Origin: a virus
Taxonomy: Duplodnaviria; Caudoviricetes
Length of the DNA stretch: 28,782 nucleotides
Reading direction: 5' to 3' (one strand)
Virus record (IMG/VR): IMGVR_UViG_3300032320_001068
Span: 1-28,782 of that record
Program-made: the position numbers and the translations under genes
In this document: positions 2,891 through 25,645 of the stretch, piece after piece
Layout: the number at the start of each line of letters is the position of its first letter
Position numbering within the stretch: position 1 is the stretch's first letter
Notes under the pieces: model-generated
The model's database searches: none
Told to the model about the DNA's origin: nothing
The model's input: the letters and a program-made list of their open reading frames with translations, nothing else

Positions 2891-2968
2891 CAAACTGACA
2901 AACAAATAAAAAAAGTAAGGTTATAAACTGACAAAAAAAACAATAAACTTTGACAATTAAATAATTTG

Positions 2969-2976
2969 TATATTTG
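2969..2976 (+). promoter_or_regulatory. -7 promoter element upstream of small terminase
   Basis: TATATTTG exact match to TAnnTTTG in an intergenic region, 4 nt before ATG 2981; TTTG at 2949-2952. Confidence 0.55.
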
Positions 2977-2980
2977 CAGT

Positions 2981-3400
2981 ATGGCAAGACCTAAAGGAAC
3001 AAAAAATATTGAAACACCTGAAAAACTTTGGGAAATATTTTTAGCATACAAAAAATACACTAAAGAAAATCCAATAAAAGTTCAAGATTATGTTGGAAAA
3101 GATGGAAATGACGTACTGCGAGAAAAAGAACGGCCATTAACTATTGAAGGATTTGAATGCTATTGTTTTGAAAATGCAATCATAGGCGATTTAAGCCATT
3201 ATTTTGCTAATACGGATAATAGATATTCAGATTATGTAACTATCTGCTTACGCATAAAGAAAATGGTCAGAAAAGACCAAATAGAAGGTGGCATGGCTGG
3301 AATATACAATCCAAGCATTACACAGCGATTAAATAACTTAATTGAAAAAGTAGAACAAACGAATATAGAACAACCTTTATTCCCTGAGGATAAAAAATAG
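2981..3400 (+). CDS. terS: Terminase small subunit (P22 gp3-like DNA-packaging protein)
   Basis: MARPK..IETPEKLWE.F..Y, RPLTIEGF, DQIEGGMAGIYNPSITQRL motifs; immediately before TerL; ATG 2981 preferred over the TTG at 2966, which overlaps the promoter. Confidence 0.85.
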   Translation: MARPKGTKNIETPEKLWEIFLAYKKYTKENPIKVQDYVGKDGNDVLREKERPLTIEGFECYCFENAIIGDLSHYFANTDNRYSDYVTICLRIKKMVRKDQIEGGMAGIYNPSITQRLNNLIEKVEQTNIEQPLFPEDKK

Positions 3401-3417
3401 TTTTGTTGTAGATTAAA

Positions 3418-4581
3418 ATGTTTCAAAGAACAACGGCAATAAATAAATTACTTAAATTAAAAAGCCGCAAGAAAGTTATACAAGGAGGGACAAGTGCAGG
3501 TAAGACATTTGGCATCATTCCAATACTTATAGACTACGCAACAAAAAATCCAAGACATATTATAACTGTTTGTGCTGAATCAATTCCAGCGGTAAGAAAT
3601 GGTGCTGTAAGAATATTTGCTGATGTAATGGTAGAAACAGGTAGATGGAGACAGGATGGTTGGAGATCAAACCCAATGGAATATAGATTTGGAAATAGTT
3701 CATTAATTCAGTTTACTGCTTTTGATTCAGTAGGAAAAGCTAAGGCAGCTGGTAAAAGAGATGTTCTATTTTTAAACGAAGCCAATCATATTGAATTTGA
3801 GATTGCCGATGCTTTGATGGTACGTTCTAATGAAATTTGGATTGACTACAACCCAGATAATGAGTTTTGGGTGCATTCAGAAACATTAAAAGAACCGGAT
3901 TCAGAGTTTTTATTATTAACTTACAAAGACAATGAAGCAATCCCACCAGAAATATTTAGTGAATTAATGATTAAGATTGAAAAAGCTAAAACTTCGGAAT
4001 ATTGGGCTAATTGGTGCAGAGTTTACATTGATGGTGAAATTGGAACTTTGCAAGGTGCAATCTTTCAAAATTGGAAACTTGGAGAATTTGACGATTCACT
4101 TCCTTATGTTTATGGTTTGGATTTTGGTTTTAGTAATGATCCTGATTCGATGGTAAAAGTTGCAATCGATAAAAAAAGAAAACTAATTTACATACAAGAG
4201 ATATTTTACAAAAAAGGCAATTCAACATCTCAGTTAATTGAATTAATTGATTTGTCTGTAACCAATAAGCGTGATTTAATTGTTGCAGATTCAGCTGACC
4301 CAAGAACAATAAACGACATAAGAGCAAAAGGATTTAACATTATTCCAGCAATAAAAGGCCCAGATTCAATTCGGAATGGCATCAAAGGAATGCAAGATTA
4401 TGAAATGATTATTGATGAAAACTCTACCAATCTAATAAAAGAATTAAGAAATTATGTTTGGCACGATAGAAAAGCACAAATGCCGATTGATGACTTTAAC
4501 CACCAAATAGACCCAGCAAGGTATGTATTTCAATATCTTTGCCCGGCAAATACCTTAGCAATTGGAGGAATGAAAAGATAA
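3418..4581 (+). CDS. terL: Terminase large subunit (PBSX/SPP1-like family)
   Basis: Walker A QGGTSAGKT; Walker B LFLNEAN; IDYNP; nuclease motifs GLDFGFSNDP, ADSADP and DDFNHQIDPARY. Confidence 0.95.
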   Translation: MFQRTTAINKLLKLKSRKKVIQGGTSAGKTFGIIPILIDYATKNPRHIITVCAESIPAVRNGAVRIFADVMVETGRWRQDGWRSNPMEYRFGNSSLIQFTAFDSVGKAKAAGKRDVLFLNEANHIEFEIADALMVRSNEIWIDYNPDNEFWVHSETLKEPDSEFLLLTYKDNEAIPPEIFSELMIKIEKAKTSEYWANWCRVYIDGEIGTLQGAIFQNWKLGEFDDSLPYVYGLDFGFSNDPDSMVKVAIDKKRKLIYIQEIFYKKGNSTSQLIELIDLSVTNKRDLIVADSADPRTINDIRAKGFNIIPAIKGPDSIRNGIKGMQDYEMIIDENSTNLIKELRNYVWHDRKAQMPIDDFNHQIDPARYVFQYLCPANTLAIGGMKR

Positions 4582-4638: not shown

Positions 4639-5931
4639 GTGAACTTATTACAAAAAGCAGTTTTCGCAATTAACAAATCAGTAAACGGTGAAAGAATACC
4701 GCTTACAACACAAAACAGAAACTTGCTTTGGCAATTAATGGGTGGATTTATTCCTTTGAATTGGAACAACTCAAGCAATGTGCAAGTAAATGAGGGATAC
4801 ATTAGAAATGTTGATGTTTACGCAATTGTAAAAAAGATTGTTGACATTTCAAAGTCAATCCCCTGGATAGTAGAAAAGCAACAAGTTAGCGGAAATTGGA
4901 AAGTGATGGAAAACACAACCATTCATGAACTAATGGATGAGCCTAATATGAGTAAGGGCTACACTTGGAACGATATTGAGGAACAAGTTTTAATCTATCT
5001 TTTGATTACTGGTAACAGCTATTTAGTAGGCAACACTCAAATAGATTCAACATTAATCGAAGAGTTGGATATTTTACCAAGTCAAGCGATTAATATTTTA
5101 AATAGAAATTCAAGTTTCTTTATTCCTGAGTTGGAATTTCAATTTAGTTACGGTTCGACATCAAGAATATACAAGAAAAGTGAAATAGAACACATCAAAT
5201 TTTTTAATCCTAATTTACAAAGGTACGATTATGGATTAAGCCCAATTGAAGTTGCAAGTAGGGTGGTTGAAGTTGGTAACCAAAGATGGATTGCAGATGC
5301 TTCAATTTTAGGAAACAAAGGAATAAGTGGATTAGTATCTGACAAATCAAACAATGCAATGACACCGGATGAGGCAGACATTGTCAACGATGAAATGAGA
5401 AACAGAATGGGTGGTGCGGAAAAGTTTGGTCAAGTTTTAGTTACCAACAAAGATTTGACTTATATTCCAATTGGTTTATCCCCAGCCGATATGCAACTAC
5501 TTGAAAAGGGAGTTGTAACAACAAGAACCTTGTGCAATGTATTGGGTTTAGATTCATCACTATTTAACGACCCAGCAAATAAGACTTACAATAACAGACT
5601 TGAAGCAGAAAAAGCAATGTACACTAATTGTATAATCCCTTTATCTGACAAAGTAGCTGAGGGATACACTCATTTTATTTGCAGAAATCATTTTCCATTG
5701 CAAAGAGTTAGAATGAGACAAGACTTCAGTAAAGTAGAATGTTTGCAAGAAAATCTAAAAGAAAAAGCGGATATTTTAGGAAGTTTCAAAGACAAAGGAA
5801 TTTACACAGCCAATGAAGTAAGGGATAAAATGGGCGAACCAAGATCAACTGACCCAAATGCAGATTTATTAATTATCAATACAACACCAATTAATAATTT
5901 GCAAAATACACAACAACAAGAACCAAAATAA
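4639..5931 (+). CDS. Portal protein (HK97 family)
   Basis: GY..NVDVYAIV..I, PN..YTW, LLITGNSY, IEHIKFFNP...YGLSPI, TYNN, IIPL, GIYTANEVR motifs; follows TerL. Confidence 0.93.
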   Translation: MNLLQKAVFAINKSVNGERIPLTTQNRNLLWQLMGGFIPLNWNNSSNVQVNEGYIRNVDVYAIVKKIVDISKSIPWIVEKQQVSGNWKVMENTTIHELMDEPNMSKGYTWNDIEEQVLIYLLITGNSYLVGNTQIDSTLIEELDILPSQAINILNRNSSFFIPELEFQFSYGSTSRIYKKSEIEHIKFFNPNLQRYDYGLSPIEVASRVVEVGNQRWIADASILGNKGISGLVSDKSNNAMTPDEADIVNDEMRNRMGGAEKFGQVLVTNKDLTYIPIGLSPADMQLLEKGVVTTRTLCNVLGLDSSLFNDPANKTYNNRLEAEKAMYTNCIIPLSDKVAEGYTHFICRNHFPLQRVRMRQDFSKVECLQENLKEKADILGSFKDKGIYTANEVRDKMGEPRSTDPNADLLIINTTPINNLQNTQQQEPK

Positions 5932-5977: not shown

Positions 5978-6064
5978 ATGAGCAAGAAACTAAACAAAGA
6001 AGAAATTAAAAAAGCAAAAAAAGCAAAACAAGTTAAATTGGATAGCAAATTAATTAAAAAATAA
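5978..6064 (+). CDS. Lysine-rich 28-aa micro-protein (MSKKLNKEEIKKAKKAKQVKLDSKLIKK), absent from the ORF track
   Basis: Translated by hand; ATG 7 nt after the -7 box; stop overlaps the protease start (TAATG at 6062-6066). Confidence 0.6.
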   Translation: MSKKLNKEEIKKAKKAKQVKLDSKLIKK

Positions 6065-6894
6065 TGAAGATACCAGCCTTTAAAACACAAGCTGAAAAGT
6101 TTGATTTCTTATTTAGAAATAAGCAATTGATTATTGATGCAAAAAAGTCAATGGTTAAACACGCTGACTGTATTGCTTATGCTTTACCTACTGAATATAA
6201 ACAAGGCAGTGCAATTAAGGAATTAAATAAAGATGTATCATTACCTGAAGATGTTGAAACAATTACTGCAAAGGTTGTAATTAACACTACCAATATAATT
6301 GATTCACACGATGACTGTCACATACCTGGCATTTGGAAAAAATCGCTAAACGAAATGAAAACTTTTTATTTGTTGCAAGAACATAGAATGAATTTTGATA
6401 AAGTAATTAGCGACACGATAAATGCCTACACAAAAAAATATACTTGGGATAAATTAGGATTTGAGAAACTACAAGGCGAAACAGAAGCATTAATTTTTGA
6501 TGCTGAAATAAGTAAAGACAGAAACGAATTTATGTTCAACCAATACATTAATGGTTGGGTTAAAGAACACTCAGTTGGTATGAGATATGTGAACATTTAT
6601 TTGTGTATGAATGTAAACGACAAAAGGTATCAAGAAGACAAAGCAAATTGGGATAAATATTACCCAATGGTTGCTAATAAAGAAAAAGCAGATGAGGAAG
6701 GTTATTTCTTTGCAGTAACAGAAGCTAAAATAATTGAAGGTTCAGCCGTTTTAAAAGGGTCAAACTATGTAACCCCGACATTAGATATTACAATACCAAA
6801 AGAAATTGAGCCGGAACATTCCACTCAAAAAACAGAAGCCGAGAAATCACTTCAAGCAAAGCGTGAATTACTAAAAAAATTAATTATTAACTAA
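6064..6894 (+). CDS. Prohead maturation protease (HK97 gp4/S78-like)
   Basis: NIIDSHDD.HIPG.W.KSL, LLQEH (His), EHSVGM (Ser), IEGSAV motifs; lies between portal and capsid. Confidence 0.85.
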   Translation: MKIPAFKTQAEKFDFLFRNKQLIIDAKKSMVKHADCIAYALPTEYKQGSAIKELNKDVSLPEDVETITAKVVINTTNIIDSHDDCHIPGIWKKSLNEMKTFYLLQEHRMNFDKVISDTINAYTKKYTWDKLGFEKLQGETEALIFDAEISKDRNEFMFNQYINGWVKEHSVGMRYVNIYLCMNVNDKRYQEDKANWDKYYPMVANKEKADEEGYFFAVTEAKIIEGSAVLKGSNYVTPTLDITIPKEIEPEHSTQKTEAEKSLQAKRELLKKLIIN

Positions 6895-6913: not shown

Positions 6914-8416
6914 ATGAAAGAGTTAAATTACAACAACAGCAATGCCAACAAAATGAAGATTGGCTTTGCTAAAAGAAAGCAAATACTTAGCAGAGCAATT
7001 GTAGGAATCTTCTTACTGTTTTGTGCTATTGGTTTTGCTGGTGCAGACTTCTCAAAGTCGCAAAATGCCGAAACTGTTATAGGTCAAGTTTTAACAATTG
7101 CAACAGTTATTCCTGCCTTTATGGTAGAAGGAAAATTTAAAGAATTAAAAGGAGAAGAATTGAAAACGTTTATCGAAACTGCTGACCCTGAACAATTGGC
7201 TGAGTATTACAATCAAAAAAATGAAGCTACAAGAAAAGAATTGGAAGCTAAGATTGAAAGCAAAGCTACAAAAGAAGACATCGAAGCACTTAAAACACAA
7301 TTAGCAGAAGATGGCAAAGAGCAGTTGAAAATGTTGAACAAAGCATTAAAAGAGTACGGTTTAGCAATTGAAAAAATCAATAAAGAAAACAGAGCAAATT
7401 CTTTGACTACTCAAACAACTGCAATCAGAAAAGGATTGGAAGAAAATCTTGAGCAATTGAAAGCATTAAAAGGTGTTGATAGAAGTAAAGCAACTGAATC
7501 AGGATGGATTTCATTCAAAGCTGCTGATACAATGTTGGAATCAACTAATATTAGTGGTGGTAACGTTCCTGTTGAGCAAAGAATCCCAGGATTAAACCTA
7601 ATCGCAACCAGAAGAATACGTTTGTATGATTTGTTTGCTAAAGGTTCAGCAACATCGAATATTATATCTTGGGTGTACCAAGCTAATAGAGATGGTTCTG
7701 CTGGTGGTACTGCCGAAGGAACAACAAAGAATCAAATTGACTTTGATTTAGTAGTAGCTTCTCAAGCAGTAGTTAAAAGAACTGCATTCATAAAAGTTTC
7801 AACAGAAATGTTAGATGATATTGATTTCATTGAAAGCGAAATCAGAAACGAATTAATGAGATTATTAATGTTAGATGTTGAATCTACTGCTTATAGCGGA
7901 AACAACACACCTCCAAACATGAATGGAATCAGAACAGTTGCTTCTGCTTTTGCAGCTGGTACATTTGCTGGAAAAGTTGACAATGCAAATGAGGCTGATG
8001 TATTAACTGTTGCAGCTAATCAAATTGCAATTGCTAATCAAGAAGCACCAAATGCAATATTAATGCACCCATCTGATATTACTAAATTGAAATTATACAA
8101 AGTAAGTTCAACTGATAGAAGATACATTGATCGTTTAATATTTATTGGTGATACATTAACTTTAGATGGTGTACCAATGATTGCAACTACTTTAGTAACT
8201 GCGGGCACTTACTTAGTTGGAAACTTTAATCTGTCAGTGTTATATCAAATGCAAGGTGTTATGATTAACATTGGATTAGATGGTAACGATTGGACTAAAA
8301 ACTTGCGTACAATCATTGCAGAATGGAGAGGTGCTTTAGTAACCAAGAATAATGACAGAACTGCTTTTGTTAAAGGAACATTTGCAACTGACATCGCTGC
8401 CTTAGAAACTGCTTAA
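6914..8416 (+). CDS. Major capsid protein, HK97 fold, with coiled-coil delta domain and an extra hydrophobic N-terminal extension
   Basis: AEGTTKNQ.D, KRTAFIKVSTEMLDD, GN...PNMNGI, AILMHPSD, LDGVP, LVGNF, DWTKNL.TI.AE.R, AFVKGTF; charged helical residues ~72-202. Confidence 0.93.
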   Translation: MKELNYNNSNANKMKIGFAKRKQILSRAIVGIFLLFCAIGFAGADFSKSQNAETVIGQVLTIATVIPAFMVEGKFKELKGEELKTFIETADPEQLAEYYNQKNEATRKELEAKIESKATKEDIEALKTQLAEDGKEQLKMLNKALKEYGLAIEKINKENRANSLTTQTTAIRKGLEENLEQLKALKGVDRSKATESGWISFKAADTMLESTNISGGNVPVEQRIPGLNLIATRRIRLYDLFAKGSATSNIISWVYQANRDGSAGGTAEGTTKNQIDFDLVVASQAVVKRTAFIKVSTEMLDDIDFIESEIRNELMRLLMLDVESTAYSGNNTPPNMNGIRTVASAFAAGTFAGKVDNANEADVLTVAANQIAIANQEAPNAILMHPSDITKLKLYKVSSTDRRYIDRLIFIGDTLTLDGVPMIATTLVTAGTYLVGNFNLSVLYQMQGVMINIGLDGNDWTKNLRTIIAEWRGALVTKNNDRTAFVKGTFATDIAALETA

Positions 8417-8418
8417 TA

Positions 8419-8637
8419 ATGGGAAAAAATACTAAAAATGGTGGTTCAGCTTCAGAAGTTGAATCACCAAATTTAGAAACAGAATCAACAGAAGTTGAAG
8501 TTTCTAAATTCAGCCAATCAACAGAACCAACAGAAGTTGAAGTTATAAAAGATTTCAAAGGATTAAAAGTTGGCGATGTAGTAACAGTTTCTAAAAATGT
8601 AGCAGAAATATTAACCTCTAAAGGATTAGTGAAATAA
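8419..8637 (+). CDS. Small capsid-adjacent protein (acidic Ser/Thr/Glu N-terminus, small C-terminal beta-beta-alpha domain)
   Basis: Coupled to capsid stop; C-terminal VEVIKDFKGLKVGDVVTVSKNVAEILTSKGLVK. Confidence 0.75.
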   Translation: MGKNTKNGGSASEVESPNLETESTEVEVSKFSQSTEPTEVEVIKDFKGLKVGDVVTVSKNVAEILTSKGLVK

Positions 8638-9419
8638 TGAAAAAAATAATTTTATCAATGTGTTTAATGTTGTTGACATTCGCAACATTTTCACAATCTG
8701 CCTCAAAGTATGTTGCAATGACAAATAATGGTGCAGCTTTAACCAATGCTGGTACTACTTACGTGACAATTGCACCAACTATCTTTTATGAAGCGGTTAG
8801 TTTTCAAGCTGTAGTAACAAAAGGAACAGGAACTCCTGATGGAATAGCTACTTTGCAATATTCAAACGATGGAACAAACTACATTGAAATGGATATTACA
8901 GATTCACTTTCTATTGCAGACCAAACTACTAACACCAAAGTATTCGTCAAAACTTTTAACCCTGCATTCTATTATAGAATTGCTTTTGTTGGTAGAGGTA
9001 CACAAGCAAGTACAGTTAGCGGTTTCTTTTGGGGTGCTGGAGTAAACAATAACAAAGTTGCAAGAACAATGTTATCTAATTATTCTTTGACTTCTGATAC
9101 GATAACAAATACCGGAAGTGGTTATGTTGAATTCACACTTAATTCATTTTACAAACGTGTTTCCTTTCAACCAGTAGTTACTAAGTTAAGCGGAACAGCT
9201 GCAGGAACAGTAACATTGCAAGGTTCAATTGATGGAATAAATTATGTAACTGTTTCAAGTTCTTATGTTTCATCAGCAACAATGTCAGTTACTAATGTAA
9301 CAACATCAACCGCAATACTAATTGTTACTTCAAGTCCTTACCGATATTATAGATTAAATTATGTCGGTTCAGGAACAATGAGTTGCCGATTAAGCGGATT
9401 CTTAGTAGCAAACAACTAA
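8637..9419 (+). CDS. Signal-peptide-bearing protein with two tandem beta-sandwich (jelly-roll/discoidin-like) repeats; possible head decoration protein
   Basis: MKKIILSMCLMLLTFATFS|Q signal; repeats FY..VSFQ.VVTK..GT..G..TLQ.S.DG.NY and P..YYR...VG.GT.....SGF each occur twice. Confidence 0.7.
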   Translation: MKKIILSMCLMLLTFATFSQSASKYVAMTNNGAALTNAGTTYVTIAPTIFYEAVSFQAVVTKGTGTPDGIATLQYSNDGTNYIEMDITDSLSIADQTTNTKVFVKTFNPAFYYRIAFVGRGTQASTVSGFFWGAGVNNNKVARTMLSNYSLTSDTITNTGSGYVEFTLNSFYKRVSFQPVVTKLSGTAAGTVTLQGSIDGINYVTVSSSYVSSATMSVTNVTTSTAILIVTSSPYRYYRLNYVGSGTMSCRLSGFLVANN

Positions 9420-12344: not shown

Positions 12345-12780
12345 CATTGCAGAGATGCCAATCCACAACTATTTCAAATTGAATGAAACAAATGAAATTA
12401 AGTGGCTTGTTGAAAAAAAAGGAATTTACGGAAATACAAAAGAAGCTATTGAAAAAGCAATTACAGAAATTCAGCAACAGATAATTGATGAGTTTGGAAT
12501 TGGTGAAACATTTACTGAGATTTTGCAGTTAAAACAAGAAATTGCAATGTATAAATGTGATAATGTGATGGAGGATACAAATTTTTATAATACATTTGTA
12601 AATATTAAAGAAACTGAATTAAAGGCTTTAGAAGAACAAAAAGGCACAACAAAAGAAGAAATGCAATTGCACCTAACAAAGTTCATTGGAGTTAAATTAA
12701 ACTATAAAGAAACAAGTGTAAAGGAATATTATACTTATATTAAAAAACTAAATGAAAATAATTCTAAACAACCTGATTAA
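12319..12780 (+). CDS. Putative tail assembly chaperone
   Basis: Helical acidic protein ending ...TSVKEYYTYIK; near the tape measure gene. Confidence 0.55.
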   Translation: MLRVKYYDNIAEMPIHNYFKLNETNEIKWLVEKKGIYGNTKEAIEKAITEIQQQIIDEFGIGETFTEILQLKQEIAMYKCDNVMEDTNFYNTFVNIKETELKALEEQKGTTKEEMQLHLTKFIGVKLNYKETSVKEYYTYIKKLNENNSKQPD

Positions 12781-13012
12781 AATTGGAATGATTATTTTGC
12801 TTTTTGCTTCTTGTAAAAAAGAACAATATGGAAAATGTGTTGATAAAGAATTTACACAAAGCCAAGGATTTAAAACTACTGGAGGATTTCAACAAGTAAA
12901 TCCTGCTAAATACATTTTGTTTTTAGATTTAGAAGGTAATATTATTGAGCAGAAAACAACAGAAAAAATATACTTTAAAACTAATATTGGTGATTTAGTA
13001 AAATTAGAATAA
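12752..13012 (+). CDS. Small lipoprotein
   Basis: Hydrophobic leader with lipobox LLFAS-C21, followed by KKE and a beta-rich domain. Confidence 0.7.
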   Translation: MKIILNNLIKIGMIILLFASCKKEQYGKCVDKEFTQSQGFKTTGGFQQVNPAKYILFLDLEGNIIEQKTTEKIYFKTNIGDLVKLE

Positions 13013-24954: not shown

Positions 24955-25181
24955 AAATTGAACCAAGAAACTACACACAAGGGCCACAGGCAATCTACAA
25001 GAATGGAACTTATCGAGTAATTGCCAACTATCCCGAAAAGAGGGAGGCAAAGCTAATATTAAATGGAGTTACTAAGAATATTTCTTACGATGAATTATTT
25101 GAAGTATTATCTGAGAGTGAAGCAAATCTAAGGATGTTGGAGGAACAGGCAAAAGAAATGAATGCTAAAACTAATTTATGA
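24951..25181 (+). CDS. Hypothetical 76-aa protein (small beta-barrel-like N-terminus)
   Basis: ATGA overlaps at both ends. Confidence 0.6.
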   Translation: MKIEPRNYTQGPQAIYKNGTYRVIANYPEKREAKLILNGVTKNISYDELFEVLSESEANLRMLEEQAKEMNAKTNL

Positions 25182-25645
25182 AAATCAGCCTAATTTTAGA
25201 GAGAGAAGTTTACACTGACAAATCAACAATTGGTAAACTTTATTTTAAAGATTTGCAAATAATCTACCCACGTTTTATTTGTTATACACTTGAAGATACT
25301 TGCAGAGATTGGAATAGGGATGGCGATTTAGACGATAAGGGAGAAGCAAAAGTATTTGGCGAAACTGCAATACCAAGCGGAACGTATCAAATGGAGTTTA
25401 GATATTCTCCAGGATTTAAAATAAACACACCACATTTATTGAATGTAAAAGATTATAAATACATTTTAATCCATCCCGGCAATGGCCCTAAAGATTCCAA
25501 AGGATGTATTTTGGTAGGCAAAAATCAATCTAAGGATTGGATTAGCGAAAGCAGGTCAGCATTCAAAGAATTGATGTTTTTGCTGAAGAAATATAGTGAA
25601 ATGGAAATTACATTAGTTGATAAAAAAATAATCCCATTAGCATAA
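25178..25645 (+). CDS. Putative endolysin, DUF5675-like (L,D-transpeptidase-like His/Cys peptidase)
   Basis: STIGKL, CYTLED, AIPSGTY, ILIHPGN...DSKGCILVG, SR.AF motifs. Confidence 0.8.
   Translation: MKISLILEREVYTDKSTIGKLYFKDLQIIYPRFICYTLEDTCRDWNRDGDLDDKGEAKVFGETAIPSGTYQMEFRYSPGFKINTPHLLNVKDYKYILIHPGNGPKDSKGCILVGKNQSKDWISESRSAFKELMFLLKKYSEMEITLVDKKIIPLA

Follow-up and report, generated by a model that had tools for sequence, protein, structure and literature searches.

Introduction

The capsid proteins that make up tailed-phage heads are regarded as soluble, and membrane contact, where known, is through the portal. In phage HK97, the scaffold domains form 100-angstrom towers on the inner side of the prohead, and the N-termini of the delta domains point to the prohead centre (PMC10275583). 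T4 proheads begin on the inner membrane and leave it after the maturation cuts (PMC9958956). SAR anchors are weakly hydrophobic and can leave the bilayer (PMC9239132).

The DNA stretch analysed here (the window), a linear virus record of 28.8 kb and 83% completeness, belongs to an uncultured freshwater tailed phage; Pfam/PHROG-type annotation of its ORFs reveals no recognised sheath gene. Its major capsid protein opens with a hydrophobic leader ahead of the delta domain, and this leader is a real, widespread, and optional feature.

Genome organization and host

The genes of the window run in the order terminase, HK97-type portal, probable protease, and capsid, followed by neck, tail, and lysis genes (Table 1).

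Table 1. Coordinates of the head-gene region and of the parts of the capsid precursor (positions in the window; res, residues of the capsid protein)
Feature	Position	Strand	Evidence
Terminase small and large subunit genes	2966..4581	+	Profile matches
HK97-type portal	4639..5931	+	Phage_portal E 4e-41; signal or membrane helix absent
Probable S78 prohead protease, export signal absent	6064..6894	+	H107 and S170 invariant in 16-row alignment
Basic N-region of leader, res 1-27; start codon 6914, A-rich context	6914..6994	+	
Hydrophobic helix 1, res 28-44, signal/anchor grade	6995..7045	+	Kyte-Doolittle 15-mer 2.72, crude dG -0.72
Polar loop, res 45-53	7046..7072	+	Length varies among relatives
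Weak helix 2, res 54-67, with many small residues and a nearly invariant terminal Pro	7073..7114	+	Crude dG +3.4
Conserved junction, res 69-78, onset of soluble delta domain; contains Met70	7118..7147	+	24-row alignment
Helical delta (scaffold) domain, ending at K202, where the prohead protease likely cuts	7148..7519	+	Model and alignment
Mature HK97-fold capsid domain, res 203-500	7520..8416	+	phrog_10 and HK97 chain matches
ORF of 72 aa between capsid gene and secreted-protein gene; occurs with and without leader	8419..8637	+	
Two-domain beta-sandwich protein, 260 aa, predicted Sec signal peptide cut before Gln20	8637..9419	+	

From the A-rich starts, a signal peptide cut before Gln, and the fact that the nearest cultured relatives are Flavobacterium phages (41% capsid identity), we infer a probable Bacteroidota host. 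By eye, no Shine-Dalgarno motif is seen at the A-rich starts of the window genes, and starts of this kind fit the Bacteroidota (PMC6847099), where most signal-peptidase substrates have Gln at +1 (PMC5837995). Most of the sequencing runs containing part of the window are lake and freshwater metagenomes. A search of a genome collection returned two weak loci only, so that prophages appear to be rare or absent and the host is not readable from them.

An 86-aa ORF at window 12752-13012, just before a tape-measure-like gene, possesses a lipoprotein-like signal (a short hydrophobic run followed by Cys) and is not among the gene clusters common to the records. Loci L035 and L141/L148 belong to one 37-kb contig with slightly differing versions of the head genes at both ends, representing either an end overlap or a strain mixture. 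Record G003 contains a gene run (L204:8213-12220) which by eye resembles a 7-deazaguanine (Que/FolE) DNA-modification cluster and is a candidate for one. The endolysin candidates differ in type among the records: that of the window (25178-25645) is a DUF5675 protein, another is found at L206:12086-12508, and the leader-bearing records other than the window carry various types. An M15_4-like peptidase cluster is present in 5/5 complete leaderless genomes versus 0/5 leader-bearing records, two of which are incomplete, and a split of this endolysin by leader status is a lead only.

The major capsid protein and its leader

The 500-aa product of ORF 6914-8416 is an HK97-type major capsid protein, matching phrog_10 (E 5e-28, beginning at residue 84) and HK97 gp5 chains (E 1e-24). 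Pfam returned no matches for the window's capsid, protease, or secreted protein, and NCBIfam nothing meaningful. The original prediction described a basic patch, a hydrophobic segment at residues 28-44, a nine-residue loop, and a second hydrophobic segment at 54-71, all of which are found at those positions. The N-region carries seven Lys/Arg versus one Asp/Glu (means of 7.5 and 1.0 over 26 leader-bearing relatives) and, at 25-27 aa before helix 1, is unusually long for a signal peptide; a structure model of the capsid protein places a helix at 13-42 with low confidence. Between the best hydrophobic windows of the 26 relatives the loop measures 5-18 residues, and it is nearly absent in tight-turn forms such as P0180, P0188, and P0199.

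Alignment of 24 rows reveals that Pro67 is present in at least 90% of them and that Phe75 and Leu78 are invariant; residues 69-78 are modelled as two short strands, again with low confidence. Since junction-like sequence also opens leaderless capsids (e.g., P0131 and P0224), the junction belongs to the soluble part of the protein. Long helices follow at 92-161 in the low-confidence capsid model (pLDDT 55). A short Lys-Glu-Leu repeat flanks the leader of the window at 6914-6928 and 7136-7147, at both the protein and the DNA level, and matches the deletion junction in the leaderless locus L050.

The leader could be an artefact, with translation beginning at Met70: leaderless relatives start at the equivalent place, and the position is kept as Met in 20/26 leader-bearing relatives. 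A start-context matrix built from 31 window genes, itself weak (leave-one-out mean -0.55), gives scores of +1.9 for 6914 (top 5% of 533 other ATGs), -5.1 for 6953, and -3.8 for 7121. The strong context described at 6914 and the poor one at 7121 are borne out by the matrix; 6953, named as another possible upstream start, does not reach the top 5%. The upstream start has A at -3 in 8/9 leader loci; the internal Met lies in a pyrimidine-rich context, with T at -3 in all nine. In five of the 26 leader-bearing proteins, Met is lacking throughout the stretch from 15 residues ahead of the junction to 40 beyond it, leaving the long form as the only plain capsid candidate there. Of 12 pairs examined, the four closest give a pN/pS of 0.17-0.23 over codons 2-69; in distant pairs synonymous sites are near saturation, and leader pN resembles that of the delta domain. 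The leader architecture is retained in relatives down to 55% identity. Met70 and Met14 were ruled out as starts by alignment, context scores, and the -3 residues. Given the purifying selection, the poor internal context at all nine loci, and the five proteins with no Met, we attach almost no weight to the artefact. On comparative evidence, the leader is shown to be translated from 6914, in frame, and under purifying selection. An RNA-library contig, which may be DNA, spans the leader, capsid, and secreted gene without gaps at approximately 94% identity.

Hydrophobicity and signal-peptidase motif

Hydropathy scales were applied uncalibrated, and the insertion energy is a crude, uncalibrated dG sum. 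In the window this sum is -0.7 for segment 1, +3.4 for segment 2, and +3.6 for the best soluble window of the capsid body. By this measure helix 1 surpasses the clear signal peptide of the window (+0.6) and comes close to the window's membrane proteins (-0.5 to -2.9), and in 26 relatives it averages 2.67 on the Kyte-Doolittle scale with a crude dG of -0.66. Helix 2 of these relatives averages +3.2 (range +1.7 to +6.0; soluble controls +3.6 and +3.7) and in 26/26 is too weak to span a bilayer alone on this uncalibrated score, which does not include help from helix 1. It has only 9-14 residues before the Pro in several relatives (9-10 in P0008 and P0089), and over 28 leaders 47% of its residues are Gly, Ala, Ser, or Thr. 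After helix 2 the acidic and basic residues are about equal in number, and the N-end is strongly basic. By comparison with a SAR domain, the first helix is strong and follows 5-9 Lys/Arg residues, only helix 2 being SAR-like in make-up. Several far leaders are made up of 30-35 hydrophobic residues turned by a Pro, the polar loop being absent; by eye, the arrangement of basic N-region, strong helix, and weaker small-residue helix recurs in most of 22 far leaders. Of the proposed two-helix anchor, the first half is borne out as a helix of signal or transmembrane grade behind a basic N-region; the second is marginal and also short, and a stable two-helix anchor is not supported.

The Ala-Gly-Ala signal-peptidase-like site that had been pointed out at the end of helix 1 is present in the window but is not retained in near-identical relatives, its -3 position being Tyr or Gln in L002, P0002, and P0004. 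Signal-peptidase motifs occur in 19/28 near leaders versus 15.6 in shuffles (p 0.11), and in 9/20 far leaders versus 11.2. A conserved signal-peptidase site is not supported by these counts, in which the motif is not enriched over shuffles. Gln follows none of the listed sites in the leaders, whereas the secreted protein encoded at 8637 does have it, and neither a Tat signal nor a Prp motif was seen by eye in the leader.

These data bear on whether the capsid protein is exported, helix 1 acting as a cleavable signal peptide that sends part of the protein to the periplasm while the rest builds heads. Such export is congruent with a second helix that scores no better than soluble windows, with the A-x-A-like ends of 19 near leaders, and with the strong co-occurrence with Gln-rule secreted proteins, including a tailspike, described below. 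However, the portal and protease have no signal, the motif is not above shuffles and is lost in near-identical relatives, tight-turn hairpin forms exist, the N-region is 25 residues long, and Gln is never at +1. Glycosylation motifs, moreover, are rare in the mature capsid (0.39 per protein with the leader versus 0.04 without, from small numbers). We consider export unlikely, including those variants in which the periplasmic share would serve as a decoy, play an envelope role, or undergo late assembly there.

Distribution of the leader

The leader is found in 23 of the 120 best protein hits, with one further protein retaining its second half only. Among the best 80 viral loci nine possess it and two are open at the 5' end; the remaining loci have an in-frame stop just upstream of the short start, some of them at 75-78% identity. 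Of 150 distant representatives, 126 are full length, and at least 22 of these have a hydrophobic leader, a lower bound because gene callers may have trimmed some leaders. In the distant capsids at L131:3797-5149 and L133:3782-5269, the N-terminus is extended by a segment that is basic but not hydrophobic.

On a quick tree of 72 capsid cores the leader label needs 13 changes, eight of them forced by strong branches, and on a 133-row tree it changes 23 times, versus 24.1 for shuffles, with 13 forced. Loci L050 and L055 share 96-98% DNA identity over 9 kb, and in L050 the leader is cleanly absent, in frame, between short Lys-Glu-containing repeats, a state that from its sequence reads as leader loss; P0084 and P0010 look alike and are comparable to this case. 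L146 has a leader 77% identical to that of P0006 on a core only 28% identical to that of the window, and the secreted neighbour is kept. A profile of the near leaders matches 6/22 far leaders at E below 0.01, although hydrophobic make-up may partly explain this. The alignments and trees show a leader that is optional and that has been gained, lost, and swapped repeatedly. The extension is missing from most close relatives, among them L050, whose DNA is 96-98% identical to that of a leader-bearing phage; it therefore does not represent an obligatory assembly pathway for the capsid family. Absence from close relatives is one of the outcomes that the original prediction had listed as refuting it, and this outcome is partly realized.

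A predicted secreted neighbour and a tailspike with a predicted signal peptide

The protein encoded at 8637, two genes downstream of the capsid gene, contains Asp-Ser/Thr glycosylation motifs at 89 and 154. The Asp-Thr motif is invariant in 9/9 aligned homologues, and 6/9 homologues give a weak phrog_427 match. In Bacteroidota the periplasmic O-glycosylation motif is Asp-Ser/Thr-hydrophobic in non-cytoplasmic proteins (PMC12871550), and the 8637 protein fits as a predicted substrate; the motif is no denser in it than in cytoplasmic window proteins. Neither a cultured close homologue nor a solved structural relative was found, and a single-sequence model (pLDDT 35, best Z 4.8) was too poor for a fold match. 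A search for shorter homologues, spanning 30-63 residues only, revealed none. Judged on its sequence, the protein is a candidate capsid decoration or virion part; it may instead be the product of an accessory envelope gene.

Co-occurrence was scored wherever the capsid gene was complete and followed by 500 or more bases of sequence, a gene of secreted type being counted within 700 bases. Such a neighbour is present at 20/21 leader-bearing versus 2/134 leaderless loci (both of the latter the same contig, L029), and at 6/7 versus 1/50 after merging of near-copies; the Fisher p of 1e-6 overstates the link since the loci share descent. Among 102 leaderless loci with 1.5 kb of downstream sequence, a one-domain homologue lies further on in two (L131 and L133), where it is secreted and located 1.2-1.6 kb downstream of the capsid gene. 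L055 has a leader and no neighbour, and L029 a neighbour and no leader. In the distant P0199 clade the leader is present in 6/6 loci with a capsid start and the secreted neighbour in 0/5 with downstream DNA, glycosyltransferase and methyltransferase genes following the capsid gene instead. At L192-L198 (e.g., L194:5185-8448), leader-bearing capsid genes directly precede a cluster with GT2, GT1-like, and methyltransferase genes, possibly a capsid glycosylation cassette. The leaderless loci L061, L063, and L065 have a 150-aa ORF between the capsid and head-completion genes which by profile is unrelated to the 8637 protein.

In five complete leaderless genomes the 8637-type gene is absent, apart from one weak match of 32 residues, and a pattern search revealed no Gln-rule signal peptides. 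At least one such peptide occurs in 4/5 leader-bearing records, the exception being the 71% complete record of L055. Record G002 has four Gln-rule signal peptides. Among them are those on a 963-aa beta-helix tailspike in the fibre position (L202:13395-16286, minus strand), in which a fibre-type N-terminal motif directly follows the signal peptide (profile E 0.001 among 453 proteins), and on its 180-aa neighbour (L202:12848-13390, minus strand). By pattern search, the fibres of the other nine records have no Gln-rule signal peptide.

The leader might also act as a timer, host targeting factors holding the nascent capsid and so delaying or metering assembly, in which case the membrane location would be incidental and the secreted neighbour an unrelated moron. 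The ease with which the leader is gained, lost, and swapped is consistent with this, as are the P0199 clade, with its leader but no neighbour, and the precedent of phage 80alpha for dispensable capsid leaders handled by host factors (PMC5744158). The conserved helix 2 and its Pro would, however, be left unexplained, no stalling motif was noticed in the leader, and a tailspike with a signal peptide would be an untypical moron. We therefore regard a timer as very unlikely.

Protease, topology, and head assembly

Five of the 16 rows of the protease alignment match Peptidase_S78 (PF04586), the window's own protein not being among them. K202 is invariant in 24 rows, occupies the same site in leader-bearing and leaderless capsids, and aligns four residues before the HK97 cut; neither the protease nor K202 co-varies with the leader. 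The parts on which the original prediction depends are present, in the form of a probable S78 protease gene with its His and Ser upstream and a conserved K202; an obligatory pathway is not supported. The best crude dG for the portal is +5.4. Neither portal nor protease bears an export signal, so that head formation is expected in the cytoplasm; since K202, H107, and S170 are common to both capsid forms, the last step would be ordinary delta removal. As the delta domain faces the shell interior, leaders cannot suspend a closed prohead from a flat membrane. This leaves release of the subunits ahead of closure, a shell that encloses membrane, or central packing of the leaders. The idea of a finished, tethered prohead released by the cut at K202 is not supported for this reason, the delta domain lying inside the shell (PMC10275583).

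The weak helix 2 favours letting go before closure. Were a stable two-helix hairpin to hold every subunit until the K202 cut, as originally envisaged, the inward-facing delta domains would require the shell to close round an inner-membrane bud in the manner of a vesicle coat. The hairpin architecture and the tight-turn forms agree with this, and on rough geometry with T=7 assumed, 415 hairpins (approximately 660 square nm) would fit a vesicle of 10-12 nm radius. Yet helix 2 is marginal, lipid must leave before DNA packaging, no scission or lipid-handling gene was seen, near-identical phages manage without the leader, and the HK97 scaffold is internal (PMC10275583). A stable hairpin is, we believe, quite unlikely.

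A strongly hydrophobic helix behind a basic N-region is an expected substrate of SRP/SecA. The charge asymmetry and the very hydrophobic helix 1 should attract these factors, which argues against a leader that stays outside membranes, its helices packing at the prohead centre as an extra scaffold for nucleation or size control; this would, moreover, leave the co-occurrence with secreted proteins unexplained. Central packing is congruent with delta N-termini that point to the centre (PMC10275583), and the optional nature of the leader suits an assembly aid, but we judge such packing decidedly unlikely.

Our preferred reading, to which we assign a probability of about 0.45, is that the 67-residue leader is a temporary tether of the capsid precursor to the host inner membrane, added to a delta domain of the usual HK97 kind. 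Sec/SRP is predicted to engage helix 1, the basic N-terminus remaining inside, and the weak helix 2 would turn the chain back such that the capsid body stays cytoplasmic; the tight-turn forms, which leave little room for an outside domain, count for this topology. Subunits or capsomers would gather at the membrane, where T4 prohead assembly starts, and because the delta domain points inward most would let go before shell closure. Release would presumably occur when the marginal helix 2 slips out in a SAR-like manner, whether or not a host signal peptidase also cuts after helix 1, and what remains of the leader would go with the delta domain when K202 is cut. In near relatives the leader is accompanied by secreted-protein genes in the virion module, which suggests that the tether may place head precursors beside parts maturing in the periplasm.

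Against a temporary tether, most relatives assemble without a leader, and L050 lost its own with flanks and protease 96-98% identical. A helix 2 this short and weak may fail to halt export. In addition, the signal-peptidase motif is not enriched, and the link to the neighbour fails in L055, L029, and the P0199 clade. A wider view, which we hold to be rather doubtful, is that a group of Bacteroidota tailed phages build the virion across the inner membrane: precursors would dock on the cytoplasmic side by a Sec-engaged leader, possibly budding the membrane into the growing shell, while surface parts (the beta-sandwich protein of the head module and, in one genome, the tailspike) would be exported, glycosylated by the host, and joined in the periplasm or at lysis, the whole forming a swappable module with many gains and losses.

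A selected, membrane-grade capsid leader occurs in approximately one sixth of the lineages of a large freshwater family, and its link in near relatives to secreted virion-module genes points to an unrecognised use of host secretion in virion assembly. The natural pair L055 and L050, with and without the leader, makes its role directly testable. For annotation, leader starts are easily trimmed, or the capsids called membrane proteins.

Comparison with known systems

In the literature searched, mainly open full texts, no HK97-fold major capsid protein was found described as carrying a membrane or signal leader, nor was one in passages of PMC7911831 and bioRxiv 2026.10.24.761521. Within the same literature, a leader together with a secreted-protein gene beside the capsid gene was not found described for tailed phages. 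The window phage shares with HK97 gp5/gp4 the capsid fold, a helical N-terminal scaffold, the portal-protease-capsid order, and a Lys cleavage site (PMC10275583); HK97, however, has no hydrophobic leader, whereas the window phage has 67 extra residues before the delta domain. With T4 it would share a head assembly linked to the inner membrane and a detachment that follows the maturation cuts (PMC9958956), but T4 attaches by its portal gp20 with gp40 and YidC, and the candidate tether here is on the inward end of the capsid protein. SAR endolysins resemble the leader in their weak, small-residue segment, which is handled by Sec and releasable (PMC9239132), but theirs is the first helix and frees an enzyme to the periplasm, whereas here the weak helix is the second and the cargo is expected to be cytoplasmic.

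The nearest cultured relative, Flavobacterium phage hattifnatt9-1 (NC_048832), has a capsid protein 41% identical to that of the window and the same order of head genes, but its 393-aa capsid has no leader and the secreted neighbour is absent. The leader is also absent from Leeuwenhoekiella phage Arctus_1 and Cellulophaga phage phi19:1.

M13 procoat and the PRD1-type internal-membrane phages provide examples of virion proteins that cross or enclose the inner membrane. These have other capsid folds, and their membrane parts stay in the virion, whereas the leader of the window phage is located ahead of the maturation site.

Among dispensable capsid leaders, the closest precedent is that of Staphylococcus phage 80alpha, whose capsid and scaffold proteins bear removable N-terminal leaders, the one on the capsid protein being dispensable (PMC5744158). 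In 80alpha these consist of 13-14 residues copying the L27 cleavage motif, are cut by the host Prp, and have no membrane-grade helix (PMC5744158).
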